DNA of 64,000 nucleotides from assembly GCA_030651035.1 (NCBI GenBank), contig JAUSCK010000173.1:4177-68176 (forward strand), written 5' to 3'. The notes below the pieces were generated by a model. It searched no databases. It was given only the letters and a program-made list of their open reading frames with translations, and was not told the origin of the DNA. Source of the stretch: Elusimicrobiota bacterium. GTDB taxonomy: Bacteria > Elusimicrobiota > Elusimicrobia > Elusimicrobiales > UBA9959. Positions 803 through 24,416 of the stretch are shown piece after piece. Each line of letters opens with the position of its first letter. Within the stretch, counting starts at the first letter, position 1. A program made the translations under genes and the position numbers.

Positions 803-819
803 GAGCGAATATATTCCCT

Positions 820-1824: not shown

Positions 1825-1828
1825 AGCT

Positions 1829-3820: not shown

Positions 3821-3826
3821 GTAGTC

Positions 3827-4750: not shown

Positions 4751-4797
4751 TTAATCTGAAAACAGATTCCTTGTTGCCTTCGCCACGCACAGCATCC

Positions 4798-6012: not shown

Positions 6013-8264
6013 AAGGCCTCGCACTGCCCCACCACTTCCGCTACCACCATGAACTCTTCGTCTTCCGCGTTCGGGATCACTATGGGGCTGTAGGCCGGGT
6101 TCAGCGGCTGCAGGATTATTTCTTCGTGCTGCCAGGCGCCGTCGGGGGCGTATTTCTTTTTGCTGGTATATTTCTTAGCCAGAAAACTTCTGATGAAGTT
6201 TTCCACCCGCATAGCGGGCGCCCTGCGGGTGGCATACACCCCGTCGGGCCTGGCGCGCATAGCGCTTGGCCCTCCGCCCGCTTCGCGGGTAATTCCGCAA
6301 GCGGAATTAGGGATAACGGTGTAGCTGCCGCCGGCGTCTGGGTCGGCTATGCTGCTGTGCTGTACCAGTACCAGCTTGTTCTGGCGGCTGCCGCCCGGGT
6401 TGGCGCGGAATACGCAGTAGTCGCCGTCCTGCAATTTGGGCTCCATGCTGCGCCCGGCCACTTGCGCGGCGAACATGTTGTGGTCGGGCTTCAGGCCGGG
6501 AGGGCATTTTATCCAGCCAAGCGGCTCTACGGCCATGCCGCGGCCGAAATTGCCGCAGGCGGCCTGCAGGCTGAAGACGGGGAGGTAAGCCACAAATTTC
6601 AGGGCGGCGGCCACTTCTTCTTCTATCCTGAAAAGCACTTTAAGCGCGGCAGCCGCGGGCGCGGCTTGGGCTGCCGGCGCGGGCGCGAGGAGGGCCTTAA
6701 AGTGCCGGGCGGTTTCTTCGTCCGTAAAGTGCACGTAGCAGCCCTTCGCCTGAAAACTTCTGCTGAAGTTTTCCGCCCGCATAGCGGGCGCCCTTCGGGA
6801 GGCATACACCCCCTCGGGCCGGGCGCGCATAGCGCTGGGCCCTCGGCCCGCTGCGCGGGGAATCCTGCGAAGCGCAGGATTCGGGTTAAGGCCCCTGGTC
6901 ATAAGGGTGCGGTAGGTGGAGGACTCCGCCAGCTCCAGGCCCTGGCAGGTGGGGCGCCCGGGATCCTTCTTGCTGAGCCAGGGCCAGCAGTAGCCGGCCA
7001 CCACGCGGGCTTTGTTGCTGGTGTTCTTCTGGCGGATAAGGGCATGCAGTTGGGCGGGGTCGTCGAGCACCCTGAAATCGTAGTCGCCGGTATCCAGCGT
7101 GTCGTTGGCGCTGGCTTTGGCTATGCCAAGGGCATAGTCCAGCCAGGCCAGGTAGCCGGGGGAGAGGGGGCAGGTTACTTTCTCCCTTGGGCGGTGGTCA
7201 CGCATAAACCGCATAGCGGTTTTGCGCGACCCCGCCTCGGCGATTTTCGATGAAAAATCGCCTCCGGTCTTGCGGCCCGGACGCGAGGCGTAATTATGCC
7301 TCGCTCTAAAGCCGGGCCTCACTTCGTCCACAATAAGGCAGTCGTACTCGTTGGGCCGGGCCTTGTGGAAGGTTTCGGAACTGCGGAACATGTTATCTAT
7401 GCGGCTGCGTTTTAGTGTACCGGCAAGTTTGGCCGCGTACACAAGGCGGGGCGCGGAATTGCGCGTTACGTACTGCTGGTTGCCCCGCGCCGGTAAGTTC
7501 CTGCTGGAACTTACCCCCCGCATAGCGGGGGCCCCTTCGGGGCGGCATACACCCCCTCGGGCCTGGCGCGCATAGCGCTTGGCCCTCGGCCCGCTGCTGC
7601 GGGGAATCCAGCCGTGCCCGGCAGGATTCGGGTTAAGCATCCCGGCCAGGCTGTCGGCCAGGTTATTGGACGGTTTTATTTTGCCGTTGTTTCTAAGGAA
7701 GGGGAGGCGCTTGGCCGAAAAGTTTCTGCTGAAACTTTTTCCCCGCATAGCGGGGACCCGTGCCGGGCGGCATACACCCTCTCGGACACTGCGCGCATAG
7801 CGCTTGGTCCTCGACCCGCTGCTGCGGGGAATTCTGCCTGGCACGGCAGAATTCGGGTTATAAGTCCAGGCCTGGTAGGAAGGGTGCGGGGTCTCCTGCG
7901 GGCCGCCTTTGAAGGTGGTTACTACTATGCCGTCCTTGGCGGTGAGGTCCGCCTGCTGCCACTGCTTTAGTTCCACCAGGATGGCGGTGTCGGTGTGTTG
8001 GGCGTCGGTGCCGGTGAGGATGAAGTCTATGCGCTTGCTGGAGCGCGGGATGTGGTATTCGATGGCCACGCCGGCGGTGGCGGGGATGGCGGGGTCTTCC
8101 AGTACGGCATGCATGTAGCGCAACGAGTTGGTCCAGGAGTCTATTTCCGAGCGCTTGGTGCCGTGGCCGGTTACGGCTTTGAAGGTGTCGAAGATGATCC
8201 CGCCGATGTCGTTGCCCATGACATCCTGCCGGAAGCGGGCCTTGGTGGCGGTGTAGACTATCAC
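6009..8264 (-). CDS. DUF2075-like / C-terminal S24 (LexA/UmuD-type) peptidase-like fusion ORF, repeat-riddled and probably degenerate
   Basis: 751-aa open frame. It has the DUF2075 N-terminal motif (KRIDFILTG...AILVELKQW, HPSYQAW), CLIVDE (Walker B-like), YLAWLDYALGI, and a C-terminal GRSMEPKLQDGDYCVF motif. I found no Walker A. Repeat copies sit where the P-loop and the post-DExH segments are expected. Confidence 0.6.
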   Translation of the reverse strand: MIVYTATKARFRQDVMGNDIGGIIFDTFKAVTGHGTKRSEIDSWTNSLRYMHAVLEDPAIPATAGVAIEYHIPRSSKRIDFILTGTDAQHTDTAILVELKQWQQADLTAKDGIVVTTFKGGPQETPHPSYQAWTYNPNSAVPGRIPRSSGSRTKRYARSVREGVCRPARVPAMRGKSFSRNFSAKRLPFLRNNGKIKPSNNLADSLAGMLNPNPAGHGWIPRSSGPRAKRYARQARGGVCRPEGAPAMRGVSSSRNLPARGNQQYVTRNSAPRLVYAAKLAGTLKRSRIDNMFRSSETFHKARPNEYDCLIVDEVRPGFRARHNYASRPGRKTGGDFSSKIAEAGSRKTAMRFMRDHRPREKVTCPLSPGYLAWLDYALGIAKASANDTLDTGDYDFRVLDDPAQLHALIRQKNTSNKARVVAGYCWPWLSKKDPGRPTCQGLELAESSTYRTLMTRGLNPNPALRRIPRAAGRGPSAMRARPEGVYASRRAPAMRAENFSRSFQAKGCYVHFTDEETARHFKALLAPAPAAQAAPAAAALKVLFRIEEEVAAALKFVAYLPVFSLQAACGNFGRGMAVEPLGWIKCPPGLKPDHNMFAAQVAGRSMEPKLQDGDYCVFRANPGGSRQNKLVLVQHSSIADPDAGGSYTVIPNSACGITREAGGGPSAMRARPDGVYATRRAPAMRVENFIRSFLAKKYTSKKKYAPDGAWQHEEIILQPLNPAYSPIVIPNAEDEEFMVVAEVVGQCEAL
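6174..6314 (+). repeat. Hairpin-rich interspersed repeat, copy A (in-frame inside ORF 6009..8264)
   Basis: It contains hairpin GAAAACTTC-tgat-GAAGTTTTC, CCGCATAGCGGG, GGCATACACCCC, GCGCGCATAGCGC and terminal hairpin TAATTCCGC/GCGGAATTA. It translates in the gene frame as 47 aa (141 nt). Confidence 0.85.
6744..6891 (+). repeat. Hairpin-rich interspersed repeat, copy B
   Basis: Same architecture as copy A, with GAAAACTTC-tgct-GAAGTTTTC, CGCCCGCATAGCGGGCG, GCGCGCATAGCGC and GAATCCTGCG-aag-CGCAGGATTC. Confidence 0.85.
7201..7320 (+). repeat. Divergent hairpin-rich segment, possibly a related repeat family member (copy E)
   Basis: It contains AAACCGCATAGCGGTTT, GGCGATTTTC-gatg-AAAAATCGCC and CGAGGC-gtaattat-GCCTCG. 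It shares the CCGCATAGCGG core, but the module order differs from copies A-D. Confidence 0.45.
7484..7637 (+). repeat. Hairpin-rich interspersed repeat, copy C
   Basis: It contains GGTAAGTTCC-tgct-GGAACTTACC (a compensated stem), CCGCATAGCGGGG, GCGCGCATAGCGC and GAATCCAGCCG...CGGCAGGATTC. Confidence 0.85.
7711..7864 (+). repeat. Hairpin-rich interspersed repeat, copy D
   Basis: It contains AAAAGTTTC-tgct-GAAACTTTT (a compensated stem), CCGCATAGCGGGG, GCGCGCATAGCGC and GAATTCTGCC-tggcac-GGCAGAATTC. Confidence 0.85.
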
Positions 8265-8611
8265 TTCAGCCCCGTGTACTTGGTGTGGCGGCCTTTGGCT
8301 TTGGAGACGGGGTATTTCTTGGCGTTCTTCTTGAGTTTTTTGCCGAGGGCGGCGAGCGGGTCTATTTTGAGGTCGTGGCTTAGGAGGAGGACCCAGTAGA
8401 GGACGTCGGCGAGTTCTTCGGAAATTTCCGATTTATTGGTTTTTATGTGCTTTTCTATTTCTGCGGAGTTCTTCCACTGGAAGTGCTCCAGCAGTTCGGC
8501 GGCTTCGAGGGAGAGGGAGATGGCTACGTCCTTGGGATTGTGGAACTGCGCCCAGTCGCGCGCGTCCCGGAAAGCGATGATCTTTTTAGTGAGGTTTTCG
8601 ATGCCGCTCAT
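8261..8611 (-). CDS. MazG-like nucleoside triphosphate pyrophosphohydrolase (small all-alpha type)
   Basis: 116 aa from the internal ATG at 8611, with a GGGGG RBS upstream. The sequence runs MSGIENLTKKIIAFRDARDWAQFHNPKDVAISLSLEAAELLEHFQWK...EELADVLYWVLLL. The upstream 90 codons of the track ORF are Arg/Pro-rich junk. Its stop overlaps the next start (8264/8261). Confidence 0.85.
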   Translation of the reverse strand: MSGIENLTKKIIAFRDARDWAQFHNPKDVAISLSLEAAELLEHFQWKNSAEIEKHIKTNKSEISEELADVLYWVLLLSHDLKIDPLAALGKKLKKNAKKYPVSKAKGRHTKYTGLK

Positions 8612-8655
8612 GTTGCCCCCAGTGCTGCCCCGTCGCCTTGATTCTACCTTTTTCC

Positions 8656-8878
8656 CTACACCCCTAAGAACTTTGCCGTACTCCCGGTTTTGCCCGGAAT
8701 TATCTCCAGCCTGGTTTCTACCAGGGTTTTGAGTTCTTGGACGTGGGAGATTATGCCTACCAGGCGGCCGTCTTTGCGGATTTCTTCCAGGGCGCGCATG
8801 GAGAGGTCCAGGGTTTCGGGGTCCAGGCTGCCGAAGCCTTCGTCTATGAAGCTGGTGTTCATTTTTAGGCCGCCTGTA
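8656..8878 (-). pseudogene. sbcC: sbcC 3'-terminal fragment (diverged duplicate of 11148..~11370)
   Basis: It translates to GGLKMNTSFIDEGFGSLDPETLDLSMRALEEIRKDGRLVGIISHVQELKTLVETRLEIIPGKTGSTAKFLGV. The full SbcC C-terminus reads GGVKMDTIFIDEGFGSLDSDTLDLTMRALDEIRKDGRLVGIISHVQELKTLVETRLEITPGKTGSTAKFLGV. The nucleotide sequences are similar but not identical. Confidence 0.85.
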
Positions 8879-8981
8879 CAATTTATACTCTGTGGCGTAC
8901 CGGCGTCCTGGTACTTAAGCAGGTGCGCAAGCCGGCCAAAATCGGAAGATTTCATAAAATCATCGGAAGATTATCGTGAAA

Positions 8982-9437
8982 TTATAAGTTCTTTCTTGTG
9001 AGCCAGGCGCGACCTTTTACAGTAAGACGATATTTCTGGCTCTTGCTGCGCGGTTTGCCCGGCATGCTCATCTCCAGTAGCTCTATGGCTATCAGGCGCT
9101 TAAGGCCGCGCTTGAAGTTGCCGGTGCGCACGGCGTAACCCAAAGCCGTCAAAAGTTCCGGCGTGCTTTGCGGGGCAGCGGAACAGGCTTCCATGAGACG
9201 GCGCTCCGACCAACTGATTGGTTCATGGGCCTCGTCATGGGCCTCATGGGCCTTCTCCAAGCCGCCGGCTGACTGGCTCAGCGGCCGGGTCAGCAGCGGT
9301 CTTTCTATATTCAGGGTATTGGGATAGACCTCGCGCAGGCGGCCCATGTTGTCGAACACGGGGCCGGGATCCACCCACGGCAGCTTATAAGTGTTAAATC
9401 TGCCCGGTAGCGGTAATCCTCGGCCCATAGAGTTCAT
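8982..9437 (-). pseudogene. Chimeric remnant ORF: sbcD 3' fragment fused to a wHTH tail of a COG2865-type regulator
   Basis: GPVFDNMGRLREVYPNTLNIERPLL matches SbcD GPVFDAMGRLREVYPNTLHIERPLF (nt ~9296-9380 against 15963-16045). The C-terminal ...ELLTALGY...RGLKRLIAIELLEMSMPGKPRSKSQKYRLTVKGRAWL resembles the winged-helix tails of that family. Confidence 0.6.
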
Positions 9438-9476
9438 CGGACGATTTTGATTAATTGTCGGACAATTGTCGGACGA

Positions 9477-11039
9477 TTATTTTGGAGCAATCTTGAGAAC
9501 ATAACGAGCGCCTCTTCCTTTCCCTATAGGGTCTAGTAGGCCATGTTGAGTTAAGCCGACGAGATCACGGTTGGCGGTGTCCCGTGCCACATTAAATGTC
9601 TTTCGGCACCAGCCGCTGGTCACGGAACCGGTCTGTTGTGCTTCAATCATGATTCCCTTTTGACGTTCGTTGAGCTTAGCCTCAACCGCCGGAGTTACCA
9701 GCCCCGTAGAATAGGCGGGTGTTTTTATTCTGTCGTAATTACCGGCCGGTCCGGGCAGAGTGACCACAAAAAAGCCGTCCTGCTGCTCTATTTTAGGCTC
9801 GTCCAGCCCATGGTTGAGCATGGCCTCGCGCATTCGGGCAAAACCGGTACCACGCTGCTCCATTATGGACAGCGTGGCCAGCGTTTGGGCAATTAAAGGA
9901 TTGCGTGAGCACGGCCGGTAGCCGCCCCGGCGGAGCTTGGCCAGCGTAAGAGGCTGGGGCGGGTAACCAGGGCTTGCTACTTCAATATGGTCACGGAAAA
10001 TACGGATGAAAATCTTCCGTGAGGTGTCGTCGTAGCTGCGATGCGCCACCGCATTGACCAGGATCTCGCGCAGGGCGGAGACCGGATATTCATTTAGCCG
10101 CACGTTGTTCAGGCCCACCACCCGGTGCGGATGAAACGTGTGGTCGTCAACAAATTTGAGCGCCTGCTCCAGGGCGAGTGACAATGGCGCGTTGATGCCG
10201 ATCTGCCCCTTTGGCCGGCCTGTTACCCGGATGTCATCGTAGGCATCGGCCAGAATTTCACTATGAGGAAATCGGTTGGCCGGACGCTGTCCAAACAGAA
10301 GATACGCTGCCGCGGTCGCCAGGAATTTATCAGACTTAGGTGTGCGTACGGCCAGGCCGCGGGCATGCAAGGCCTGTCCGGGCGACCTAAAATCCTGTTC
10401 CGCCGTGTTCGCCGCTGTGCAACGGTTGAACTTCTTAAGCAGCTCCTGGTCCAGCAACTCGGTATAAACATCGGAGAGCACGGCAGATTCAAACGTTGAG
10501 GCTGCTTCGATCAGTTGTTCGCCCTCGTTCATTTCGGCGACAGTCGCCCGGATGCCGAACATTTCAGCCATGATCCGCTGTAGGGCCTGCAACATCAGAG
10601 GCTTTAAATCCTCCCGGTCGTGGAACCGTTTGTAGGTGTAGCCGTCCTTTTTAGTCTCGGCAATCAGCGCCCGGACCTCCGGCGAACGGGTGTCATCTTT
10701 GGCGCCCTTGAGAAACACAACGGTCGGCAACTTTAAGCGCTGCGCCAGCCGATATTCGTGGTGCGTGGCGGAAATCTCGCCATCGGGCTGGCCATATTCA
10801 TTTGCGATCATAAGCACGTAAACGGCGCAGCTATGCAGGGCTTCAAGATAAGGCTGCTTCGCCGGAAGGGGCGGCGGTGGTTCATTCTCGAAGAGCACGG
10901 GCACGCTATGTTGGAGCAGAAAAGGGTCGGTGGAAATCAGTCCGGCCACCGTCGCCCGTTCAAGCTCCAATTCCTTTTGCACTGAACTGATGAATATCCG
11001 GAGGGGTTTTATGCCTGTAGTGTTTGCCTTCCTGCTCAT
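9477..11039 (-). CDS. DUF4062 (TIR-like) - COG2865/HATPase_c_4-type - wHTH protein
   Basis: Start taken at ATG 11039, with GGAGG upstream. The N-terminus RIFISSVQKELELERATV...CAVYVLMIANEYG...HHEYRLAQ fits the DUF4062 pattern. The middle and C-terminal part reads LLFGQRP...LREILVNAVAHRSYDD...IEVASPGYPP...SRNPLIAQTLATLSIMEQRGTGF. The C-terminal wHTH reads ...GKGRGARYVL. Confidence 0.75.
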   Translation of the reverse strand: MSRKANTTGIKPLRIFISSVQKELELERATVAGLISTDPFLLQHSVPVLFENEPPPPLPAKQPYLEALHSCAVYVLMIANEYGQPDGEISATHHEYRLAQRLKLPTVVFLKGAKDDTRSPEVRALIAETKKDGYTYKRFHDREDLKPLMLQALQRIMAEMFGIRATVAEMNEGEQLIEAASTFESAVLSDVYTELLDQELLKKFNRCTAANTAEQDFRSPGQALHARGLAVRTPKSDKFLATAAAYLLFGQRPANRFPHSEILADAYDDIRVTGRPKGQIGINAPLSLALEQALKFVDDHTFHPHRVVGLNNVRLNEYPVSALREILVNAVAHRSYDDTSRKIFIRIFRDHIEVASPGYPPQPLTLAKLRRGGYRPCSRNPLIAQTLATLSIMEQRGTGFARMREAMLNHGLDEPKIEQQDGFFVVTLPGPAGNYDRIKTPAYSTGLVTPAVEAKLNERQKGIMIEAQQTGSVTSGWCRKTFNVARDTANRDLVGLTQHGLLDPIGKGRGARYVLKIAPK

Positions 11040-11147
11040 GGCTGGACCTCCAGTTGATTGAGATTTCCTTATAGAATATACCATGTCGCTGTGACAAAGG
11101 CTTGTCGCACACTTAAAAATTATCACTTTGCGGCCAGGCCGCTGTAT

Positions 11148-14100
11148 TTAAACTCCCAGGAACTTCGCCGTACTCCCGGTTTTGCCCGGGGTTATTTCCA
11201 GCCTGGTTTCTACCAGGGTTTTGAGTTCCTGGACGTGGGAGATTATGCCTACCAGGCGGCCGTCTTTGCGGATTTCATCCAGGGCGCGCATGGTCAGGTC
11301 CAGGGTGTCCGAGTCAAGGCTGCCGAAGCCTTCGTCTATAAAGATGGTGTCCATCTTTACGCCGCCGGCGTAGCCCTGCGCGACGTCGGATAGCCCCAGG
11401 GCGAGCGAAAGCGAGGCCAGGAAGCTTTCACCGCCTGAGAGGTTGGCGGCCGGCCTTGAAGTGCCCGTATAGCTGTCGAACACCTCCAGCTCAAGGCCGC
11501 CGGCACTGCGGCCGTCTGAAAGCTCCCGGAGGCGGCGCAGGCTGAACCTGCCCTGGCTCATTATATTCAGCCGGTCGGAAGCCTGGAGCAGGACATCGTC
11601 CAGGAAGCCCGCCAGGACAAAGCGCTGGAAAGACAGGTTCCAGCTGTTTTTCCCGTTGGCAACATTGGCCACCTGGCCATACACCGCGAACTCCTGGGAA
11701 AGCTTGGCAATTTCTTTCTGCTCTTTGGCTACGGCGGCAAAGACGCGGTTTGATTCGGCCAGCGCGGCCTCCGCTTCCGCCAGAATCTTCTGGGAACCCT
11801 CGGCCGCTGCTTCAGCTACTTCTGAATCTGCTGTTGTCTTTGCCAGGTTGGGGCGTTTAAGATCTTTGACCCCGGCTTTGGCGCGGTCGGAACGGTTTTT
11901 GGCGGAGGCCAGGGCTTTGCCGTGGTCGTCTATAGCCTTCTTCAGGTCTTTGCGGGCCCGCTCTTCCAGTTTTGCGGCTTCATAATCCTTTTCACCGCTG
12001 AAGCCGCCTTTGGTTATAGCGGAAATAAAATCCTTTTTTTGTTTTACAGCCGCGGCCGCGGCTTTTACAACGGTAGACTTGGCCAGGTCTGTTTTTTTAG
12101 CCGCGCCGGAATGCTCCTCGCCGGCTTTCTTGTCCGCAGCCTTAGCCTTTTTAAAGGCCTCTGTGAGTTGCGCGGCCTCTTCCTCTGTTTTTTCTATGGC
12201 GGCCTCAAGGCTGTCCAGGTCTGAGATGCCCTTGGGCAGGCGCTGGCGGGCGGACACGGCTTCAGCCTTCAGGCCGGAGGCTTTTTCCCTCTCGGCGCTC
12301 AGGGCTGTTGTTTTTTTCTTTTGGCTGGCTTCAAGTGAAAACCTGGCGTTTTTGGCGCCGGTTAGTTTTTCTTTGGCGGTTTCACCGGCTTTTATAGCCG
12401 CTTTTAATTCGGCGACTTTGTCTTTTAAGGTTTCCAGGCGGCCGGCTGATGCGCGCCAGCCTTTGGGGCCCTCGGCTATAACGGCTTCTTCCGACTCTAT
12501 GGTGGCCTTAAGGGCGGCCAGGGCGCTTTCGGCTTCGCCAAGGCGCTTGTTTTCCTGGTCCAGCTCTTCCCTGGCTTCCTTTAAACGGGCTTCTATTGCG
12601 GCCCTTTCATCTTCAGGCAGCGCGCCTTTGGTGGCGGCAGGCTTAGGGTGCTCTTTTGAGCCGCAAACCGGACAAGGGACGCCGTCCTCGAGTGCGGCGG
12701 CCAGGTGGGCGGCGAAGACGCGCTCCAGTTTAGCTATAGCCGCGGTGTGCTCCGCTTCTATCTTTTCAACTTTTGCTTTCTTTTTTGTGACGGAATCGGA
12801 CAGGGAGTCTTTGCCGGCTTTGAGGACCTTACGCTTTTCCTCTAAGCCGCTTAACTTCTCTGAAGACTTGGAAAGGCGTTTTTCCAGTTCCAGCTGGCTT
12901 TCGGCCGCGGATAAGGCTTTGGAGGCTTCCCCGGCTTTGTCCTTTGTGGTTTCTAAAAGCGCGATGTCTTTTTCTACAAAGCACAGTTCCTGTTTAAGCG
13001 CTTCGGCTTCGTCATTATATTTAGCGCAGGCCTGCTGCGCGGCTTCAAGCGCGGCGGCTTTGGAAGAATATTCCTTCAGCACCGGCTTCAGATCTTTTAA
13101 CTTGGAAGCGGCGGCCTCTAAGTCTTTAATGCGCGGCTCGGCTTTTTCGGCTTTTTCCAGGTCCTTCTTAGCTTTTAGCCCGGCGGCTTCAGCTTCTTTA
13201 AGCTCCTGCAGGCTTTCAGCTTCTTCCTCTTTGGTTTTGGACAGAAGACGCTCGCTCTCCTGCCAGAGCGCCTCGTAAGACTTGAAGGAAACTGTTTTGT
13301 CAGCCCGCTCCAGGGCTTTCTTCTGATCCTCTATTTCAGCCTCGACGGCCTCTATGCCTTTAAGCTCCGCGGCGGCCGCGTCTAATTCTTTGAACTTCGC
13401 TTCGCAGGCCTGCGCTTCCTGCAAAGCTTTACGGGCGGCCTGGGCCGCTTTTTTATCTTCGGAGGCGAGCTGGTCTTTGCCGGTTTTTCCGGCTTTCTGG
13501 GTTTCTATTTTTTCTTTAAGCTGCTCTTCTGTTTCCACTTCGGCGTTAGCCAAGGCGCCTTTCATTGCCGACGAGATTTCAGCCAGCTGGCTTACTAAAG
13601 CGTCCGCTTTTATTTTGAGGGCGTCCTGTATCAGTTTGTAATAGCCTGTTTTGAAGAGGGCTTCCAGGATGGGCTCCCTGTCTTTGGCGCCGGCTGAAAG
13701 GAATTTCTGGAACTTGTTCTGCGGCAGCATTATGATCTGGGTGAACTGGTCGGCCTTCAGGCCCAGCAGGGCCTCTACCCGCTCCGTGCATTCGGTGCTG
13801 GACAGGTCGCCGGACAATTTCCAGTCCCCGCTTGTGTACTCCCAAAGCGCGGCCTCGCCCTGGCTGCCCGTGAAGCCTTCCCCGCGTTTTTTCTTAACCT
13901 GCTGGGAGGGGGCGCGGCGTACTTTGTACTTTTTACTGCCCAGGGAGAACTCGAACACCACGGAGACCTCGGTGCCTTTCTCGGCGAAGTCGCTGGCCAT
14001 CCTGTCGCCCTGGCGCTCCTGGCCGGAGGTTTTGCCGAACAGGGCGTAGCAGATGGCGTCCAGGATGGTGGTTTTGCCTGAGCCGGTTGGCCCGGTGATC

Positions 14101-14195
14101 AGGAACAAAGACTTTTCGCCCAGGGCGGTAAAATCTATTACCGTGCCGGACTTGTAAGGGCCGAAAGCGTTTATCTCGAGTTTAATGGGTCTCAT
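11148..14195 (-). CDS. sbcC: SbcC exonuclease ATPase subunit (Rad50-like)
   Basis: 1015 aa. It has Walker A GPTGSGKTT, a long Ala/Glu/Lys coiled coil, zinc hook CPVCGS, signature LSGGESF and Walker B IFIDEGFGSLD. Confidence 0.95.
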   Translation of the reverse strand: MRPIKLEINAFGPYKSGTVIDFTALGEKSLFLITGPTGSGKTTILDAICYALFGKTSGQERQGDRMASDFAEKGTEVSVVFEFSLGSKKYKVRRAPSQQVKKKRGEGFTGSQGEAALWEYTSGDWKLSGDLSSTECTERVEALLGLKADQFTQIIMLPQNKFQKFLSAGAKDREPILEALFKTGYYKLIQDALKIKADALVSQLAEISSAMKGALANAEVETEEQLKEKIETQKAGKTGKDQLASEDKKAAQAARKALQEAQACEAKFKELDAAAAELKGIEAVEAEIEDQKKALERADKTVSFKSYEALWQESERLLSKTKEEEAESLQELKEAEAAGLKAKKDLEKAEKAEPRIKDLEAAASKLKDLKPVLKEYSSKAAALEAAQQACAKYNDEAEALKQELCFVEKDIALLETTKDKAGEASKALSAAESQLELEKRLSKSSEKLSGLEEKRKVLKAGKDSLSDSVTKKKAKVEKIEAEHTAAIAKLERVFAAHLAAALEDGVPCPVCGSKEHPKPAATKGALPEDERAAIEARLKEAREELDQENKRLGEAESALAALKATIESEEAVIAEGPKGWRASAGRLETLKDKVAELKAAIKAGETAKEKLTGAKNARFSLEASQKKKTTALSAEREKASGLKAEAVSARQRLPKGISDLDSLEAAIEKTEEEAAQLTEAFKKAKAADKKAGEEHSGAAKKTDLAKSTVVKAAAAAVKQKKDFISAITKGGFSGEKDYEAAKLEERARKDLKKAIDDHGKALASAKNRSDRAKAGVKDLKRPNLAKTTADSEVAEAAAEGSQKILAEAEAALAESNRVFAAVAKEQKEIAKLSQEFAVYGQVANVANGKNSWNLSFQRFVLAGFLDDVLLQASDRLNIMSQGRFSLRRLRELSDGRSAGGLELEVFDSYTGTSRPAANLSGGESFLASLSLALGLSDVAQGYAGGVKMDTIFIDEGFGSLDSDTLDLTMRALDEIRKDGRLVGIISHVQELKTLVETRLEITPGKTGSTAKFLGV

Positions 14196-14323
14196 TCTTC
14201 TTCCCCCTGCCCTTTTTCAGCCGCGGCTACGCCTTCTTTAAAGGCGGCCGCCTGGTCGCCTACCAGGCGGTTTTCGAACAGGAGTTTGCCCAAATGCCAG
14301 TCGGATGTATGAATGAATCTCAT
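14192..14323 (-). pseudogene. sbcD: delta-sbcD: in-frame 43-codon fusion of sbcD 5' and 3' ends, ATGA-coupled to sbcC
   Basis: It translates to MRFIHTSDWHLGKLLFENRLVGDQAAAFKEGVAAAEKGQGEEE*. The first ~23 aa match the SbcD N-terminus and the last ~20 aa match the SbcD C-terminus (QAAAFKEGVAVAEKAQGEEE). The junction falls at a shared CAGGC. The stop overlaps the sbcC ATG. Confidence 0.8.
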
Positions 14324-14333
14324 AGTATGAGTA

Positions 14334-14366
14334 ATTATAGCGGCGAGGTATGACAAGGGGTTGTCG
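14334..14366 (-). promoter_or_regulatory. Palindromic box CGACAACCCCTTGTCA + 11 nt + TATAAT (duplicate sbcD promoter)
   Basis: On the minus strand the order is CGACAACCCCTTGTCA, TACCTCGCCGC, TATAAT, 10 nt, ATG (14323). It is a near-copy of 16944-16976. Confidence 0.6.
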
Positions 14367-14390
14367 CTGGTGGGACGGATCCCGCGCTGG

Positions 14391-15554
14391 CTATAGCTCC
14401 AGGAGGCCGAAAATATCCTGCCAGGGCACGATCTTTATACCGTCCAGCAGCCGCGCGCGCGGCACCGGCGCCGCGCAGAAAAGGGACGCCTCCGGGAAAT
14501 CCCGCCCAAACGATTTAAGCCCCCTGAGCCGGGCGGAGTCAGGGGCGCGCGAGGATTTTATCTCTATCGCAAAAATCTTGCCTGCCGGAGTTTCAATTAT
14601 CAGGTCCACCTCAGCGCCGTCTTTTGTTCTGTAAAAAGACATAGTGTAATCTTTGCCGGCGTAATCAATGAGCCTGGCTATCTCGCAAACTATAAAATGC
14701 TCAAAGACGTCCCCGTACTCCGAAGTTCCCGGGTGGAGCGGGACCGAAAGCTTACCGCACACGGCCCGGTGGACACCTGTGTCGAAAAAGTAGAATTTTG
14801 GGTGCTTGGCAAGCTGTTTCCGGGCCGACTTGGTGAATGCCGGCAGCAAAAAGCCTATCAGGGTGTCCTGCAGCACCTGGAAATACTCCTGCACTGTCTT
14901 GTAGCTAATCCCGGTTTCCTTGGCAATATTGGAGTAGTTAAGAATGTTTCCGTTTTCAAAAGCGGCCAGCGGAAGAAAGCGCAGGAAGGCGCCTATATTG
15001 CGGGTTATAGCTTCGGCGGCTATCTCTTCCTGCAAATAAGTGTTCACATACGCTTTTAGGGACCTGTGCGCGGACTCTTCATTTTCCTCAGAATAAATGC
15101 TTGGCAAAGTTCCTATTCGCAGCGCTTTATCAAGCGAGAAAAGCGGCCCACACTCAAGGTGGGTCAGCGGGTGGAGGTGGCAGGTCCAGGCCCTGCCCGC
15201 CAGCAGGTTGGCCTGCGCCCTTTTCAATTTTCGCGCGCTTGAACCGCTTAGGCAGAACACGGGAGGCTTTCCCGGGGATGTCATTATTGACTGCACTTCG
15301 TTCAGCAACTGTGGTACGCGCTGTACCTCGTCAATTATGACATGGGTTTTGCTTTTATCACGCGCCAGGACTTCCTCCCGGAACAGGGACGGGTTCGCCG
15401 CCAGCCTGGTATATTCGTCAGATTTTAAAAGATCATAGTAAATGGTTTCCGCTTCGGAGAAGGTTTTTCTCAACAGGGTGCTTTTGCCGGTTTGCCGCGG
15501 GCCAAACAGGAAGAAGCTTTTATCTCTTGGAAGTTCTAATCTTCTTTTAAACAT
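14391..15554 (-). CDS. AAA+ ATPase (AAA_14) with C-terminal DUF4143 nuclease-like domain
   Basis: 387 aa. It has Walker A FGPRQTGKSTLL, Walker B VIIDEVQ and a C-terminal GAEVDLIIE...FAIEIKSS motif. Confidence 0.85.
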   Translation of the reverse strand: MFKRRLELPRDKSFFLFGPRQTGKSTLLRKTFSEAETIYYDLLKSDEYTRLAANPSLFREEVLARDKSKTHVIIDEVQRVPQLLNEVQSIMTSPGKPPVFCLSGSSARKLKRAQANLLAGRAWTCHLHPLTHLECGPLFSLDKALRIGTLPSIYSEENEESAHRSLKAYVNTYLQEEIAAEAITRNIGAFLRFLPLAAFENGNILNYSNIAKETGISYKTVQEYFQVLQDTLIGFLLPAFTKSARKQLAKHPKFYFFDTGVHRAVCGKLSVPLHPGTSEYGDVFEHFIVCEIARLIDYAGKDYTMSFYRTKDGAEVDLIIETPAGKIFAIEIKSSRAPDSARLRGLKSFGRDFPEASLFCAAPVPRARLLDGIKIVPWQDIFGLLEL

Positions 15555-15562
15555 ATAGCTCT

Positions 15563-15591
15563 ATTATACCGTCTTATTTAGAGGCGGTCAA
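15563..15591 (-). promoter_or_regulatory. Canonical sigma70-like promoter TTGACC-17-TATAAT for the AAA+ ATPase gene
   Basis: On the minus strand the order is TTGACC (15591-15586), 17 nt, TATAAT (15568-15563), 8 nt, ATG (15554). There is no Shine-Dalgarno sequence, so the transcript looks near-leaderless. Confidence 0.65.
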
Positions 15592-15737
15592 CCTATTTCA
15601 GCTAGCATTTGTATGTTTTTCATTTATCCGCCGGCGCCGCAAACCGTGCCCCCAACTCCTTCGCGGCAAGAGCCTTCTCCCTGGCGAGGCCGACCCTAAT
15701 GGCATCGATCAGAGCGAGGAGCTCGTATAATTTCCTG

Positions 15738-15791
15738 TCATTTTCGGCGGCCAGGGCCGAAGGCGTTTATCTCTAGTTTAATGGGTCTCAT
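15738..15791 (-). pseudogene. sbcC: sbcC 5' stub (first ~13 codons) left behind downstream of full-length sbcD
   Basis: MRPIKLEINAFGPGRRK* compares with the SbcC N-terminus MRPIKLEINAFGPYKSG. The ATGA overlap with the sbcD stop is preserved. Homology to 14157-14195 ends near 15754. Confidence 0.75.
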
Positions 15792-16933
15792 TCTTCTTCC
15801 CCCTGCGCTTTTTCAGCCACGGCTACGCCTTCTTTAAAGGCGGCCGCCTGCTCTTTGGACAGCTCAGCCGGGGTAACCTGCTTATAGAACGAGGTGAAAA
15901 GTTCCAGCGGGCCTTTACCGCACTGTTCGCGGGTCATGGCGACACCGGCGGACGGGGCGAAGAGCGGCCTTTCTATATGCAGGGTATTGGGATAAACTTC
16001 GCGGAGGCGGCCCATGGCGTCGAACACGGGGCCGTCGTCCAGGACCCTGGCTAAAATATAATCATCGCTGCGCTTGTCGCCGCGGCCGGCTTTAATTATT
16101 TCGTCAAGCTTGCCTTCTACAACACGCAGCTCCCGGCGCAGGGTTATGGGGATATCTTTCAGGGCGCAAGCGCCTTTGGCGTCTATTTCGCCCAGGATGA
16201 ACCGCTTTTTATGGTCTTTTTCGGAGAAGGAATATTTATAAAGGGAGCCGGAATAGACGATATTGTCCGCCTGCTTCTGGGGACCGTGCAGATGGCCCAG
16301 CGCGGTATAGCTGAAGCCCGAGAAAATGCTTTTATCCACAGCTTCGCTGCCGCCGATGGAGAGCGGGCGCTCTGATTCGCTGGTGGCGCCGCCGGTCAGG
16401 AAGACGTGGGCTAGGGCTACCGAGCGGGTGTTTTTGGGGTGGGCAGCTTTCAGGCGCGCAACCAGGGCGGCGAGGCCGGCGTTCTGGTCTTTCAGGCTTG
16501 CGTCTTTAAGGCGGTCGCGGAAGAGTTCGGTGCCGGCATAGGGGAGAGGATAGACCAGGACTTTTCCGTGCTTGTCCTGCAGTTCTACCGGTGAGATATC
16601 GGCTTTCAGGTCGCCGCGGATGAAGAGGTTGTTTGATTCAAAGACCCTTGAGCCGAAGTCCAGGCGCTCGGGGCTATCGTGGTTGCCGGCGATGAGGATG
16701 ACGGGGATTTTCAGGGTGAGGACCAGCGTGGACAGGGTTTCGTCGCAAAGCTGCACGGCTTCCGGCGGCGGGACGGCCCGGTCATAAATATCTCCGGAGA
16801 TGAAGATGGCGTCGGGCTTTTCGGCCTTGGCGAGTTCAAGAAGCTGGGCTAAGGCATGGGCCTGGTCGTCTATCAGGCGGTTCTCGAATAGGAGTTTACC
16901 CAGGTGCCAGTCGGATGTGTGGATGAATTTCAT
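15788..16933 (-). CDS. sbcD: SbcD nuclease subunit (Mre11-like)
   Basis: Start taken at ATG 16933 (MKFIHTSDWHLGK). It has the metallophosphoesterase motifs DWHLG, SGDIYD, GNHD and GHLH. Confidence 0.92.
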   Translation of the reverse strand: MKFIHTSDWHLGKLLFENRLIDDQAHALAQLLELAKAEKPDAIFISGDIYDRAVPPPEAVQLCDETLSTLVLTLKIPVILIAGNHDSPERLDFGSRVFESNNLFIRGDLKADISPVELQDKHGKVLVYPLPYAGTELFRDRLKDASLKDQNAGLAALVARLKAAHPKNTRSVALAHVFLTGGATSESERPLSIGGSEAVDKSIFSGFSYTALGHLHGPQKQADNIVYSGSLYKYSFSEKDHKKRFILGEIDAKGACALKDIPITLRRELRVVEGKLDEIIKAGRGDKRSDDYILARVLDDGPVFDAMGRLREVYPNTLHIERPLFAPSAGVAMTREQCGKGPLELFTSFYKQVTPAELSKEQAAAFKEGVAVAEKAQGEEE

Positions 16934-16943
16934 AGTATGAGTA

Positions 16944-16976
16944 ATTATAGCGCTGCCCTGCGACAAGGGGTTGTCG
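16944..16976 (-). promoter_or_regulatory. Palindromic box CGACAACCCCTTGTCG + 11 nt + TATAAT (sbcD promoter)
   Basis: On the minus strand the order is CGACAACCCCTTGTCG, CAGGGCAGCGC, TATAAT, 10 nt, ATG (16933). Confidence 0.6.
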
Positions 16977-17075
16977 CTGGGCTACCTATCTCAGTTAACC
17001 CAGCGCACTCGTACCCTGCCCAGGTTTAAGGTCACAAATTGTGACCTTAAAGCCATACAGACTCTGTTTTATCCC

Positions 17076-19358
17076 TTAGTTTACAAGAAAGGCCTTTACC
17101 CAGGCCTGCAGGGACTGGCCTTTTATCTTGAGCTGGGTTTTTGCCGTTTCCACGGCCAGCCAGTCGCGGGTTTTTTCCAGCATCGGCTCCCATTCGCTGC
17201 GGCGGGCGGCGTATTTTGCTTCCAGCGTTTTAAGGATCACCATTGTGAAGGCCAGGACCTGGTCTTTGGCGCTGGCGCCGGCAAGGGCTTTTTGGAAGCC
17301 GGCCCAGTTAAGGCCCAGCATGTGGAAGATCGATTCCTGCAGGGCAAAACCGCCTTCCAGGCGCTGACAGCCGAGTATTATGAGAAGGTCGTCCTGCGGC
17401 GGAGTAAAGGACGGGATCGACATGCTCATCCTGGCACGCGGACGACTGATCATTCCCGGTTTATATTCAGCCATGCTGGACTGTAGGTTGAAGCAGCGCT
17501 TCATACTCATAGCCCGGGGAGCGGCGACGCTCATAGACATGGACATATTCATGTCGCAGTCGCATACTTCATTTAAGGCCCCCCAGCCTTTTACCGGGAC
17601 CACCGCTATTTGGCGCAGGGCGATTTCGCCTTTCTGTTTTTCGCCGGCTTTTCTTTCCTGCACGCCCACAAAACTGGTGCCGGCGCTGGCCAGGGTGTAT
17701 TCTTTGGCAAGGGCGACGGCCTCGCTTTCCTTTCCGGCGCTTTCCAGCTCTCTTACTTTAGCGCGGGCCCAGAGAACAGAAAGTGGGGCAAAAGAGTTTT
17801 CCACCTGCGCGACGGCGATCTTGAAAGATTGCTTTTTGCCGGCGAACTCGCCGCTAAACTCTACTGTTTCGGGCAGCTTGCCTTTTGGAAGCCTGAGATA
17901 AAAAGAATCGAAACCGCCGGTAAAGATAACGGAGGGAACGCCGGAGGGCTCGGCGGTTTTCACGCCGCAATCTACTTTTACTTCCGACAGACAGCCGCCT
18001 CTGATGGCGCCGTAGAGCCTGAGCATAGGCGGCTCGATGCGCTCCGCGGGGGCTATCATTAGGGAAAGCCCTTTGCCGGCGCGGGAGGCGCTTTTAAGCA
18101 GATGCTCGTTGGGGCCGTGACCGATGCCCACAAGGTGCAGGCGGGTTCCGGCAGAGTTCTTTGTCTGCGCTACGGCAGCGATGTCTGATTCGTTGCCGAT
18201 GTCGCCGTCGGTCAGGACTATGATGTCCCTGTCTTTTGAAGGCGCGCTGTAAATATCACGCAGCGGGGCCAGCAGCTCGGTGCCGCCCAGGTCGGCCTGC
18301 ACTTTATTAAGCCATTGCAGGGCCAAGGAGAGGGAATCTTTGTCCATGGCGAGGGAGGAGGCGAACAGCTTTTCGAAGGAAGAGCCGAACCTGTAGACGT
18401 TAAACTTGTTGCCGGGCGCCAGGCTTTTTAAAAGTATTTGCAGCGCCTGCTTAGACTGACTTATTGAATCCCCCTGCATGGAGCCGGAGCAGTCCAGCAC
18501 GAAAACCAGCTCGGAGGCGGGTTTCTTAAGCGTTAGTTTCTGCGCAGGCAATGAGAAATCTACGCCGAGGTAGGAGTAGTTTTTATCCGCGGCACAGTAG
18601 GCGCGGGTTTTGGCCGCGTCTTCAAGCTGGAGGTCCAGGATAAAATCCTGGTCCATCGGGACCAGGTCGCCGGAGAGGCTCACTATGGTTTTGCCGCCTT
18701 TGAAGACCGTCTTCACGCGGTGGGAATGGGATTCTATCCCTTTCAGGTCGGCCTTATTTTCAATAACCACTTCGATCTCTATGCCGTAGGGCACGGACAG
18801 GGCGAAAGGCGGGTTTAGCTGGGCGTCCACTGGGATGCCGTCTTTGTCCGGCATTTTCGCGGGCACGTAGCGCGGGCCTATGGCGGTGGGCAGGAAGAAG
18901 CGCATGGCGCCGCCGCGGTACTCCAGGCGGGAGACCAGCTCTGTTTCTATTACCGCCTCCTGGCCGGGCAGCAGGTTGCCGGCTGAAATTGTGAAGAGGT
19001 TGGGCCTTTCTTCGTCCAGCAGGTAGGCGGAATTGCCCTTTTCCAGGGCCTTGTCGTAAAGGTCGTAGGCTTTCCGGCGCTCTTCGGCCGCGCCGGTTAT
19101 TATTTTGCCGCCGGTTTCTATCCTGAAGCCGCAGACCGCGGCGTCGGCTGGCAGCGGGAACTTGTAAATGGCCTCTATGACTATTTTCTCGTCGTTGCGG
19201 AAGCGCTGGCGGAGCACTGTCCTGGCGCCGCTGCCGATTATTACGGTCCTGGCGCTTACGCCGGTGAGCGGCACTTTGTGGTTTTCTTCCGAAAGCAGGT
19301 CTACGGCATTCAGAATTTCGGCTTTAGTGTTCTTTAGTTTTGAAATATCTATTTTCAT
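17076..19358 (-). CDS. VIT domain + von Willebrand factor A (vWA) domain protein
   Basis: 760 aa. The N-terminal VIT-like region is followed by vWA MIDAS motif VFVLDCSGSM and ...VLTDGD. There is a Met/Ser-rich linker and an alpha-helical C-terminal domain. Confidence 0.8.
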   Translation of the reverse strand: MKIDISKLKNTKAEILNAVDLLSEENHKVPLTGVSARTVIIGSGARTVLRQRFRNDEKIVIEAIYKFPLPADAAVCGFRIETGGKIITGAAEERRKAYDLYDKALEKGNSAYLLDEERPNLFTISAGNLLPGQEAVIETELVSRLEYRGGAMRFFLPTAIGPRYVPAKMPDKDGIPVDAQLNPPFALSVPYGIEIEVVIENKADLKGIESHSHRVKTVFKGGKTIVSLSGDLVPMDQDFILDLQLEDAAKTRAYCAADKNYSYLGVDFSLPAQKLTLKKPASELVFVLDCSGSMQGDSISQSKQALQILLKSLAPGNKFNVYRFGSSFEKLFASSLAMDKDSLSLALQWLNKVQADLGGTELLAPLRDIYSAPSKDRDIIVLTDGDIGNESDIAAVAQTKNSAGTRLHLVGIGHGPNEHLLKSASRAGKGLSLMIAPAERIEPPMLRLYGAIRGGCLSEVKVDCGVKTAEPSGVPSVIFTGGFDSFYLRLPKGKLPETVEFSGEFAGKKQSFKIAVAQVENSFAPLSVLWARAKVRELESAGKESEAVALAKEYTLASAGTSFVGVQERKAGEKQKGEIALRQIAVVPVKGWGALNEVCDCDMNMSMSMSVAAPRAMSMKRCFNLQSSMAEYKPGMISRPRARMSMSIPSFTPPQDDLLIILGCQRLEGGFALQESIFHMLGLNWAGFQKALAGASAKDQVLAFTMVILKTLEAKYAARRSEWEPMLEKTRDWLAVETAKTQLKIKGQSLQAWVKAFLVN

Positions 19359-19783
19359 TTTAGTTCCCCTTTCCCCTCTTTGGCTATAAGACGCGCATAA
19401 TTGACTATATTCCTTACCAGCCGGCCCTCGGCTTCTTCCGCATCGCGATTTACCTGTAAAACTATGCCGGGCGCCAGTTCATACAGGGCCACTACGCTGC
19501 GCCCTGCCGGCTGGCTATTGCTCAGGTGCGGCAGGCGGGAGTGGACGGCGGGTTCGCCGGCCGGCTTTTTGCCGCTTAAAATTGTGGCGATGGCTTCCAG
19601 GGTGAGGCCTTTTTTCTGCAGATCACGGATCTTCAGCAGGCGGGCGAGGTGCCCGCTGTCATAAAAACCGCCGCGCCCCCTGCCGGCCGGTGGGTCTATT
19701 ACGCCCTGCTGTACGTAAAACCTTATAGTCCGGCGTGAGAGCCCGGTCTGCTCGCAAAGCTGATCGATCGTATATTTGCCCAT
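19355..19783 (-). CDS. MerR-family transcriptional regulator
   Basis: YTIDQLCEQTGLSRRTIRFYVQQGVI...HLARLLKIRDLQKKGLTLEAI. It overlaps the vWA gene by 4 nt. TATAAT lies 5 nt upstream of the ATG. Confidence 0.85.
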   Translation of the reverse strand: MGKYTIDQLCEQTGLSRRTIRFYVQQGVIDPPAGRGRGGFYDSGHLARLLKIRDLQKKGLTLEAIATILSGKKPAGEPAVHSRLPHLSNSQPAGRSVVALYELAPGIVLQVNRDAEEAEGRLVRNIVNYARLIAKEGKGELK

Positions 19784-20632: not shown

Positions 20633-20665
20633 GTTATAGCAGACGAACCCGACAACGGCTTGTCG
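20633..20665 (-). promoter_or_regulatory. Palindromic box CGACAAGCCGTTGTCG + 11 nt + TATAAC
   Basis: It is embedded in a 13-bp perfect hairpin ACGAACCCGACAA/TTGTCGGGTTCGT. The spacer GGTTCGTCTGC is shared with the boxes at 28597 and 35706. Confidence 0.5.
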
Positions 20666-20738
20666 GGTTCGTAACAGCTATTTTCGTCTCTTGCCTTCTA
20701 ATTGGCGGGCTTTGGCGCTGTCGGCGTGGGCTCGCACT

Positions 20739-24401: not shown

Positions 24402-24416
24402 CGGCGGCTATATCGT

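Follow-up and report, generated by a model that had tools for sequence, protein, structure and literature searches.

How does the operon of a two-subunit repair nuclease come to stand in a genome as one complete set of genes and several partial copies, with accessory genes nested between the duplicated pieces? The question is raised by a locus at 8.6-17.0 kb of a 64,000-nucleotide (nt) stretch of an Elusimicrobiota contig (GenBank JAUSCK010000173.1; hereafter the window, whose positions are used throughout), in which sbcD and sbcC, the genes of the nuclease SbcCD, lie on the minus strand. Taking the evidence together, we regard it as probable that the SbcCD operon, split but intact, stands here at the centre of a modular defence island scarred by recombination, and that the locus was shaped by an old duplication and then by homology-anchored as well as illegitimate recombination. 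An earlier reading of the letters alone (the sequence-only reading) had proposed full plus partial, diverged sbcDC copies here, and self-comparison of the window recovered all four pairs as direct repeats of sbcDC sequence, 79-218 nt long and 84-95% identical:

8657-8874 and 11149-11366: sbcC 3' end, 90% identical over 218 nt (E 4e-81)
14157-14257 and 15753-15853: junction "J", the sbcD 3' end (~20 codons) with the first 13 sbcC codons, 95% over 101 nt (E 3e-39)
14241-14370 and 16851-16980: "P", the promoter region with the first 22 sbcD codons, 84-86% over 121-130 nt (E 8e-34)
9281-9373 and 15948-16041: sbcD fragment, 86-87% over ~90 nt (E 2e-21)

The copies within the window are 5-16% diverged, with longest identical runs of 16-47 nt. 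Read in the direction of transcription, they frame the following genes and gene pieces (aa, amino acids; ORF, open reading frame):

16934-16980 (-): P, the region 5' of sbcD, with the palindrome GCGACAACCCCTTGTCGC at 16960-16977 and TATAAT at 16944-16949, ending 10 nt before the ATG
15788-16933 (-): full-length sbcD, 381 aa, with Metallophos (8e-15) and SbcD_C (1e-14) in Pfam and TIGR00619 sbcd at 182 bits against a cut-off of 77.65
15753-15853 (-): J1, the first junction copy, 95% identical to 14157-14257
15738-15791 (-): sbcC stub ORF of 17 codons, 13 of them sbcC by translation
15593-15752, or to 15756 (-): older-cargo remnant, the 3' end of a PDC-M21A-like winged helix-turn-helix gene plus 11 nucleotidyltransferase codons
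14391-15601, ORF 14391-15554 (-): AAA_14/DUF4143 single-gene cassette (Pfam; PADLOC family PDC-S01)
14192-14370 (-): P' and delta-sbcD, a second promoter-region copy with a 43-aa mini-ORF
14157-14257 (-): J2, the second junction copy, with the conserved sbcC ribosome-binding site GGGGGAAG and the sbcC start
11148-14195 (-): full-length sbcC, 1015 aa, with AAA_23 and SbcC_Walker_B (Pfam) and NCBIfam sbcc models
9477-11126 (-): DUF4062 + HATPase_c_4 (Schlafen-like) gene (Pfam)
8261-8611 (-): MazG-like gene (Pfam), the outer limit of the scarred region and first gene of a downstream defence island

The SbcD of the window is 100% identical to NCBI MDO8804978.1, a protein with an Elusimicrobiota metagenome-assembled genome (MAG) label, and SbcC carries the zinc-hook motif CPVC at residues 508-511, which is kept in a relative; SbcC matches the sbcc_Staph model over its full length, yet stays under that model's equivalog cut-off. 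The domain features expected of both subunits of an SbcCD operon are therefore present, and what is missing is the adjacency of sbcD and sbcC, a matter of arrangement and not of family membership. By translation, delta-sbcD joins SbcD residues 1-22 in frame with the final codons of the gene, 43 aa in all, and its stop overlaps the sbcC ATG (ATGA). The sbcC stub had been described as 13 codons long, which holds for its sbcC part but not for the ORF of 17 codons in which they lie. Between this stub and the AAA_14/DUF4143 gene the older-cargo remnant, absent from the sequence-only reading, is 80% identical to positions 7031-7194 of L001 (L numbers denote contigs compared with the window), and L063 has the complete gene. 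Self-promotion of the AAA_14/DUF4143 gene, which had also been suggested, agrees with the promoter-like site TTGACC-17-TATAAT at 15591-15563, its own near-consensus promoter. For the DUF4062 gene the likely start is the ATG at 11039, preceded by GGAGG. As the sequence-only reading had it, no integrase or transposase domain was found with Pfam among the ORFs scanned at 820-19783; nor does the window hold tRNA or known RNA att sites.

The palindrome and TATAAT box of P form a putative lineage-specific promoter or operator. A sigma-70 promoter upstream of sbcD was considered and dropped, since a sigma-70 consensus scan made no call in P. In the form GCGACAA-N4-TTGTC(GC), 11-13 nt upstream of a TATAAT-like box, the palindrome has 5 exact matches in the window against 0 expected, among them those before sbcD (16960-16977), delta-sbcD/sbcC (14350-14367), the DUF4062 gene (11091-11108) and a Lactamase_B_2/RMMBL gene (24385-24402), and it also precedes several genes in relatives (L001, L041, L045-L063). 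The homology of P and P' starts just upstream of it.

The slot between sbcD and sbcC across the clade

The close relatives available for comparison comprise about 20 contigs, from many samples, of four lineages (A-D) beside the window's own, with sbcD 86-89% identical to the window at the nucleotide level. They form a narrow clade: a search with the SbcD protein returned only three 90%-identity clusters at 86% identity or more (eight distinct sequences), the next matches standing at ~51%, and a metagenome scan with an SbcC alignment gave a single close locus, L041. In lineages A, B and C, that is in every close relative whose contig reaches sbcC, this gene is split from sbcD at the same place, by 0.9-2.2 kb as compared to 1.6 kb in the window. 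In 42 of 42 distant loci, by contrast, sbcC directly follows sbcD (closest ~51% aa identity), and because the genes are adjacent in all of these and split in the close relatives, the split is specific to this clade. No empty, unsplit site was found among the ~20 close-relative contigs; the unsplit form occurs only in homologues of at most 51% aa identity. The slot is filled differently from lineage to lineage:

Lineage A (L001, L045-L054; ten independent assemblies): 177-aa PDC-M21A-like gene, then a truncated nucleotidyltransferase gene; J 93 nt
Lineage B (L041, identical with L057, and L058-L060): AbiEi_2 and AbiEii; J 148 nt
Lineage C (L056, L061, L062 and two records without DNA): 523-aa DUF4062 + HATPase_c_4 + Fic-like_C gene and a 42-aa mini-ORF; J 75 nt
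Lineage D (L055, L063; short Logan contigs): AAA_14 cassette, 92% identical in nucleotides to that of the window, directly upstream of full-length sbcD; contigs stop short of sbcC

Four cargo sets can accordingly stand between sbcD and sbcC, namely AbiEi/AbiEii, a PDC-M21-like pair, DUF4062/Schlafen-like and AAA_14/DUF4143 (PDC-S01), in every lineage co-oriented with the operon and placed between the genes of both subunits. In lineage A the nucleotidyltransferase gene breaks off near codon 75 and runs on in frame into the final codons of SbcD, and in lineage B a second promoter duplicate brackets a Schlafen/HATPase_c_4 gene upstream of sbcD. The sequence-only reading had held that an ancestral arrangement with no empty site would speak against it: the split and delta-sbcD are indeed clade-wide and no close relative has an empty site, but the cargo is not ancestral.

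In every lineage the slot extends from the stop of sbcD to the conserved ribosome-binding site of sbcC. Aligned upstream of sbcC, the inner fusion junction of delta-sbcD is identical in the window, B and C, reading ...TTCGAAAACCGCCTG.TAGGCGACCAGGC on one side and.GCCGC.TT.AAAGAAGG... on the other; beside it the three also share a derived change from GAC to GGC or AGC, and the pentanucleotide CAGGC at the break is common to both parental sequences. Because the fusion junction is common to three lineages, the delta-sbcD scar is, most simply, ancestral, and we consider this probable on alignment grounds. Around this inner junction the remaining boundaries vary. J measures 75, 93, 101 (window) or 148 nt, its copies being 90-95% identical; the J1 stub of sbcC ends at about codon 4 in C, at codon 12-13 in A and the window and at codon 28 in B; and P', the sbcD 5' piece before the junction, is complete with promoter in the window, reduced to 30-41 nt in B and C and absent from A (P/P' identity 80-86% across loci). 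An upstream ORF that ends in an ATGA overlap with sbcC exists in the window, A and C, not in B. J2, together with P' where that is retained, would keep sbcC expressed despite the insert.

What lies inside the slot tells of repeated replacement. In the window the older-cargo remnant joins the J1 stub at a CCCT/CT microhomology, and the slot of lineage C holds 103 nt that are 95-96% identical to the interior of the AbiEii gene of lineage B. These outer joints and cargo leftovers are the marks of illegitimate joins and replacement in a dispensable interval, not of a site-specific enzyme. Moreover, the regions upstream of P and downstream of the sbcC stop differ in every lineage as well, and the whole neighbourhood is a mosaic of promoter-to-stop modules, with sbcDC behaving as one of them.

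The nearest genome contig, L001 (MHTO01000004.1), is binned as Candidatus Wildermuthbacteria GWA2_46_15 (G+C 53%), in conflict with the Elusimicrobiota label of the window's SbcD and the Elusimicrobiales labels of the AAA_14 relatives; the Wildermuthbacteria bin may hold a mis-binned contig.

Downstream fragments and traces of exchange

Between the DUF4062 gene and the MazG-like gene lie further pieces of sbcDC:

9281-9380 (-): internal sbcD fragment, SbcD residues ~283-326
8982-9437 (-): chimeric ORF of 151 aa, with the sbcD fragment as its N-terminal part in frame with the Fic-like_C domain of a different DUF4062 gene
8928-9253 (-): 3' end of a lineage-C-type DUF4062 cargo gene (Fic-like_C winged helix-turn-helix; Pfam) and spacer, holding two copies of AATCTTCCGAT at 8941-8972
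8657-8874 (-): sbcC 3' fragment, the last 72 codons, still open, ending at the sbcC stop just upstream of the MazG-like gene

The piece at about 9380-9296, previously taken for an sbcD 3' fragment, is in fact an internal part of SbcD (residues 283-326) within the Fic-like_C chimera. The adjoining cargo end can be assigned to a donor type: positions 9253-8928 are 85-86% identical in nucleotides to L056 12112-12426 and L061 9395-9709, and the Fic-like_C remnant shares 87% of its amino acids with the L056 protein (residues 421-522), as compared to 32% aa identity between the window's intact DUF4062 gene product and the lineage-C DUF4062 cargo over the shared region. The sbcC 3' fragment points the same way, being 90% identical to the resident sbcC (21 of 216 nt differ) and closer to the alleles of L001 (94%, 13 of 216) and L061 (93%, 15 of 216). 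Its differences from L001 affect 9 codons synonymously and 3 non-synonymously, dN/dS towards the L001 and L061 alleles is ~0.08, and it has A/C-type amino acids at places where the resident sbcC has its own. Since a duplicate made in situ would be sister to the resident copy, the fragment came from another allele. Read 5' to 3', an sbcD piece, the cargo 3' end, its spacer and the sbcC 3' end follow one another as they would in a lineage-C operon with two large deletions. To judge from these alignments, the downstream fragments represent a decayed copy of a lineage-C-type split operon; no other lineage carries this downstream duplicate. For annotation, the mini-ORF delta-sbcD, the stub of sbcC, the chimeric 151-aa ORF and the 99-aa tail of sbcC are better treated as scars than as genes.

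The 11-nt direct repeat ATCGGAAGATT at 8941-8951 and 8962-8972, to which attention had been drawn as lying at a boundary, is exact. We rejected it as a target-site duplication, as it lies in the spacer inherited from the lineage-C cargo 3' flank and a related motif follows the window's own DUF4062 gene. The wider motif AATC[GT]TCCGA[TC] has four occurrences in the window, at 8941-8972 and 9436-9478 (minus strand), with 0.14 expected. All four copies lie in two spacers just 3' of DUF4062-type gene ends, and lineage C has one equivalent copy; the motif may be a putative binding site or 3'-flank signal of DUF4062-type genes.

Further traces of exchange are found in the resident genes. Compared with relatives in 300-nt windows, the identity of sbcC swings between 78 and 95%, and the relatives are evenly similar to one another there. 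J1 and J2 carry lineage-specific substitutions within a genome, being ~95-96% identical in the window and 95% in L001 as compared to 85-91% between lineages; because the duplication is old, this likeness would reflect gene conversion, which may keep the two junctions alike within each genome. Between the 22 sbcD codons in delta-sbcD and those of the resident gene there are 7 synonymous and 3 non-synonymous codon differences, small numbers that point to divergence of this 5' piece under selection in a functional gene. Furthermore, junction characters are incompatibly distributed among the lineages: the delta junction occurs in the window, B and C and not in D, and the joint between the nucleotidyltransferase remnant and AAA_14 occurs in the window and D and not in A, B or C. 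Recombination thus appears to be active at the locus.

Competing histories of the locus

The history we propose would run in three steps. In the ancestor of the clade, the 5' part of the operon would have been tandemly duplicated, to P-sbcD-J1 ... P'-sbcD'-J2-sbcC, as the shared junctions suggest, and the second sbcD would have lost codons 23 to ~365 by deletion at the 5-nt microhomology CAGGC, leaving a copy of the promoter, a mini-ORF and the ribosome-binding site of sbcC. The dispensable interval between the sbcD stop and the sbcC ribosome-binding site would then have served as a slot in which, as the comparison of lineages indicates, self-promoted defence and toxin-antitoxin genes were gained, truncated and replaced. 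Finally, an incoming operon variant with the DUF4062 gene would have been placed upstream of a resident split operon of lineage-C type, its origin being visible in the remnants and its mechanism more conjectural, whereupon decay of the resident operon would have left three pieces: the part of sbcD for residues 283-326, the end of the cargo gene with Fic-like_C, and the terminal 218 nt of sbcC. The agents may have been homologous exchange among diverged alleles, with sbcD, sbcC, J or P as anchor, and illegitimate joins at short microhomologies, by homology-facilitated illegitimate recombination (HFIR) or unequal crossing-over; an element-encoded recombinase would be unnecessary.

Several points weigh against this history. 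Its dynamics are deduced from end states, with no intermediate, excision product or empty site in any close relative. The shared delta junction lies at a microhomology and could in principle have arisen more than once, and translational coupling is not universal, lineage B having no start codon in the upstream frame. The statistics of the short repeats rest on 10-21 differences, and the downstream remnants at 8657-9380 are known from one assembly only. In addition, the lineage-D contigs L055 and L063 are short, both ending inside or at J, which leaves one or two sbcD copies there, and the argument from incompatible junction characters depends on their correct assembly.

A purely in-situ history, in which two or three tandem duplications of the operon arose inside one lineage and the extra copies decayed, accessory genes landing in the dead DNA with no exchange between lineages, would fit repeats that are direct and in operon order, the old, inherited delta-sbcD scar and the evident microhomology deletions. 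We disfavour it as unlikely, however, given an sbcC 3' fragment nearer to the A and C alleles than to the resident gene by mostly synonymous differences, a Fic-like_C remnant that resembles the cargo of lineage C far more than the window's own DUF4062 gene, a mosaic sbcC, incompatible junction characters and a downstream duplicate confined to the window. The sequence-only reading, in suggesting a recombination-prone locus with repeated duplication and deletion, is right in essence, except that at least some partial copies are diverged alleles of other lineages and did not arise in situ. Somewhat more doubtful still is a dedicated mobility of cassettes, by which defence genes equipped with a 75-220-nt homology arm of junction or promoter sequence (J, P) would integrate as circles or fragments through single crossovers of RecA type, each integration duplicating the arm and restoring the start and expression of sbcC, much like an integron without integrase or a surrogate-end island. 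If true, an integrase-free cassette system would be hosted by a DNA-repair operon. Three kinds of insert are indeed bracketed by direct repeats of 75-220 nt (J-cargo-J in all lineages; P'-SLFN gene-P in lineage B; sbcC3'-cargo-sbcC3' in the window), the repeats diverge as expected for donor and recipient, cargo genes have their own promoters, and the ends of L055, set head to tail with a 2-nt overlap, give a J1/cargo junction of window type with few substitutions. Yet L063, 98.8% identical to L055, reads straight through the point at which L055 starts. L055 as an excised circle was rejected, L063 continuing through this point into a complete upstream gene, and a strain-variant or repeat branch in the assembly graph is more likely. 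Moreover, the same inner delta-sbcD junction despite unrelated cargo argues that the J duplication was not re-created with each insertion, the cargo leftovers argue for replacement within an existing slot, the AAA_14 cassette stands elsewhere without an operon-derived arm, and neither circle nor empty site was seen. The site-specific variant, cassette insertion with a surrogate 3' end as the sequence-only reading had considered it, fails on the same inherited inner junction and leftovers, on J lengths of 75, 93, 101 and 148 nt with varying joints and on the lack of a recombinase.

The remaining explanations find less room. The inserted genes might work together with SbcCD, for instance as sensors or regulators of a nuclease-based defence, since cargo is co-oriented and between the subunit genes in every lineage and DUF4062 genes share the palindromic promoter motif with sbcD. 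Such coupling seems improbable for four unrelated cargo families, two of them truncated or remnant; the same AAA_14 gene occurs away from this sbcDC operon (82-83% nt identity), the palindromic motif also precedes unrelated genes, and the regions upstream of P and downstream of sbcC are equally variable. It is highly unlikely, and the least probable account of all, that assembly fused variants from co-existing strains into one chimeric contig at operon sequence common to them. In its favour, the exact arrangement of the window is known from a single MAG contig, and related strains co-occur in the same kinds of sample. However, repeats with 5-16% divergence and identical runs of 16-47 nt are poor substrates for mis-joining at usual k-mer sizes, and a chimeric join leaves one shared copy, not two separated by unique DNA. 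Furthermore, the J1...J2 architecture recurs in ~18 independent assemblies of three other lineages, and the remnant-AAA_14-P' joints recur at 92% identity in two Logan assemblies.

We therefore retain an old duplication followed by recombination between diverged strains as the best account of the locus. The movement of defence genes without genes of mobile elements is still largely unexplained, and here the locus is a legible record, with dated junctions, microhomologies, cargo leftovers and remnants whose donor allele type can be named; this record points to ordinary recombination between diverged strains rather than to a special enzyme. It also suggests that an essential-looking two-subunit operon tolerates a permanent internal gap if the ribosome-binding site of its second gene, and sometimes a promoter copy, comes along.

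Cargo, neighbouring features and known systems

Defence and toxin-antitoxin families are enriched in the cargo (PDC-S01, PDC-M21A, AbiEi_2/AbiEii, Schlafen-like, MazG-like, HNH_2), and promoter-like sites of their own are predicted for the cargo genes. In PADLOC, the AAA_14/DUF4143 protein matches PDC-S01 (6e-70), the 177-aa gene matches PDC-M21A (9e-46), and the DUF4062 proteins resemble Schlafen-like/PNTD regions of pAgo-associated proteins. PDC-S01 is a very common candidate defence family, and PDC families are experimentally unvalidated (PMC12988326). Literature searches under the terms concerned returned nothing on genes "between sbcD and sbcC" and nothing tying DUF4143/AAA_14 to defence, and no relatives of SbcD or AAA_14 were found among viral contigs.

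The AAA_14 cassette of the window (14391-15601) recurs at 82-83% nucleotide identity in two other contexts (L064 7954-9164; L068 1279-2492). Across the three unrelated contexts the homology begins 10 nt before the -35 box and ends at the stop codon or within ~13 nt of it; the copies have neither flanking repeats nor mobility genes, and in the other contexts no operon-derived arm. From these boundaries, the AAA_14/DUF4143 gene appears to move among three or more unrelated neighbourhoods as a minimal unit that runs from promoter to stop. In the Elusimicrobiales contigs L064-L067, AAA_14 is directly followed by MazG-like and SLFN-helicase/S24 genes orthologous (~80% nt) to window 8582-6022. Compared with these, the window has 5.7 kb between AAA_14 and MazG, consisting of P', delta-sbcD, sbcC, the DUF4062 gene and the remnants.

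In the downstream island the MazG-like gene is followed by SLFN-helicase/S24, AlbA_2, HNH_2 and other genes. Window positions 1-8600 form a dense defence island (HNH_2, SLFN-g3 helicase, HNH_2, Schlafen AlbA_2, SLFN-helicase/S24, MazG-like) with a G+C content of 39-64% as compared to ~56% in the flanks. Its SLFN-helicase/Peptidase_S24 gene (ORF 6009-8264, minus strand) contains four in-frame copies of a GC-rich repeat of ~150-165 nt, with two more in L064:

6174-6316, 6741-6912, 7482-7650 and 7707-7889 (-): GC-rich repeat copies in the window
L064 9915-10074 and 11014-11163: GC-rich repeat copies in the relative

This repeat is predicted to form a multi-hairpin fold (-108 kcal/mol, z = -5.3), in which 14 of 52 predicted pairs are kept through two-sided changes among the six copies. 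One window copy is 98.6% identical to an L064 copy, as compared to ~80% for the host genes; one copy replaces the Walker A region, and another, when compared with L064, inserts 46 aa cleanly into the S24 domain. The repeat had no Rfam match at E <= 1, no counterpart in viral contigs and no further copy in 69 loci. We take it to resemble in-frame selfish palindromic repeats, such as the Rickettsia palindromic elements, and it is unrelated to the sbcDC scars. Farther away, a dispersed repeat of 45-58 nt (84-92% identity) lies at window 20636-20684, 28584-28641 and 35694-35752 and at L041 4289-4353, and two very large adjacent ORFs of 2469 and 2778 aa (window 38083-53773, minus strand) hold diverged internal repeats, e.g., 42698-43088 and 51741-52131 at 67% identity.

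Set against known systems, the locus shares with integrase-borne islands of the tRNA/tmRNA type direct repeats of a target end that flank an insert and leave the target gene intact. It differs from them in the absence of an integrase, in repeats of variable length and boundaries that are 5-16% diverged, and in an inherited inner boundary: neither the window ORFs at 820-19783 nor the slots of relatives hold a tyrosine or serine recombinase, att boundaries are not fixed, and close relatives have no empty site. Transposons are no closer, with no transposase in the ORFs at 820-19783 and no inverted repeats at the cargo ends. The same applies to integrons, as there is no integrase and no inverted repeats bound the AAA_14 cassette or the slots, attC sites having been considered without a dedicated-model search.

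For the recombination itself there are closer precedents. Tsuru and Kobayashi (2008, PMC2568036) describe, for the lpl cluster of Staphylococcus aureus, an evolutionary unit that runs from the 3' end of an ORF across the intergenic region into the 5' end of the following one, a two-gene junction module that serves as recombination unit as J may do here, although in tandem paralogous lipoprotein genes and not in a split two-subunit operon with foreign cargo. Likewise, the formation of merodiploids and tandem duplications in natural transformation (Johnston et al. 2013, PMC3784515), and HFIR during transformation, as outlined in PMC3240628 and in papers cited in PMC5361080, offer a route to partial tandem duplications and to foreign insertions homologous at one end, with short microhomology junctions like those seen here. 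These processes are experimental in pneumococcus, Acinetobacter and Pseudomonas stutzeri, whereas here they would have acted in an uncultivated lineage.

Defence-island hotspots between core genes are close as well, with variable self-promoted defence and toxin-antitoxin genes, conserved flanks and no mobility genes, and they are presumably the source of the PADLOC PDC candidates. Both features by which such hotspots are recognised, different cargo between the same conserved flanks and enrichment in defence or toxin-antitoxin genes, were found here. The site nevertheless differs in lying inside an operon, between the subunit genes, and in being bounded by diverged junction repeats of 75-148 nt with a promoter/mini-ORF scar.

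The nearest described parallel is given by displacement arrays, i.e., Rhs C-terminal regions, orphan cdiA-CT/cdiI modules and the effector-immunity genes of the Vibrio cholerae type VI secretion system (Kirchberger et al. 2017, PMC5361080). As in these arrays, older, truncated copies lie downstream of an intact one, retain some conserved sequence and resemble the alleles of other strains, and the downstream remnants at our locus are nearer to such alleles than to the resident copy. The mechanism proposed there also combines a homologous anchor on one side with an illegitimate join on the other and no integrase (PMC5361080). Pairing of toxin tips with immunity genes, typical of displacement arrays, was not found at the locus with Pfam and PADLOC; the scaffold here is a DNA-repair nuclease operon in place of a toxin gene, and its remnants have no evident immunity role. 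Beyond this, the locus has an extra slot within the operon that is bounded by a duplicated gene junction. This is what appears to be new: a slot for defence genes inside the operon of a two-subunit repair nuclease, framed by a duplicated gene junction that would keep the second gene expressed.

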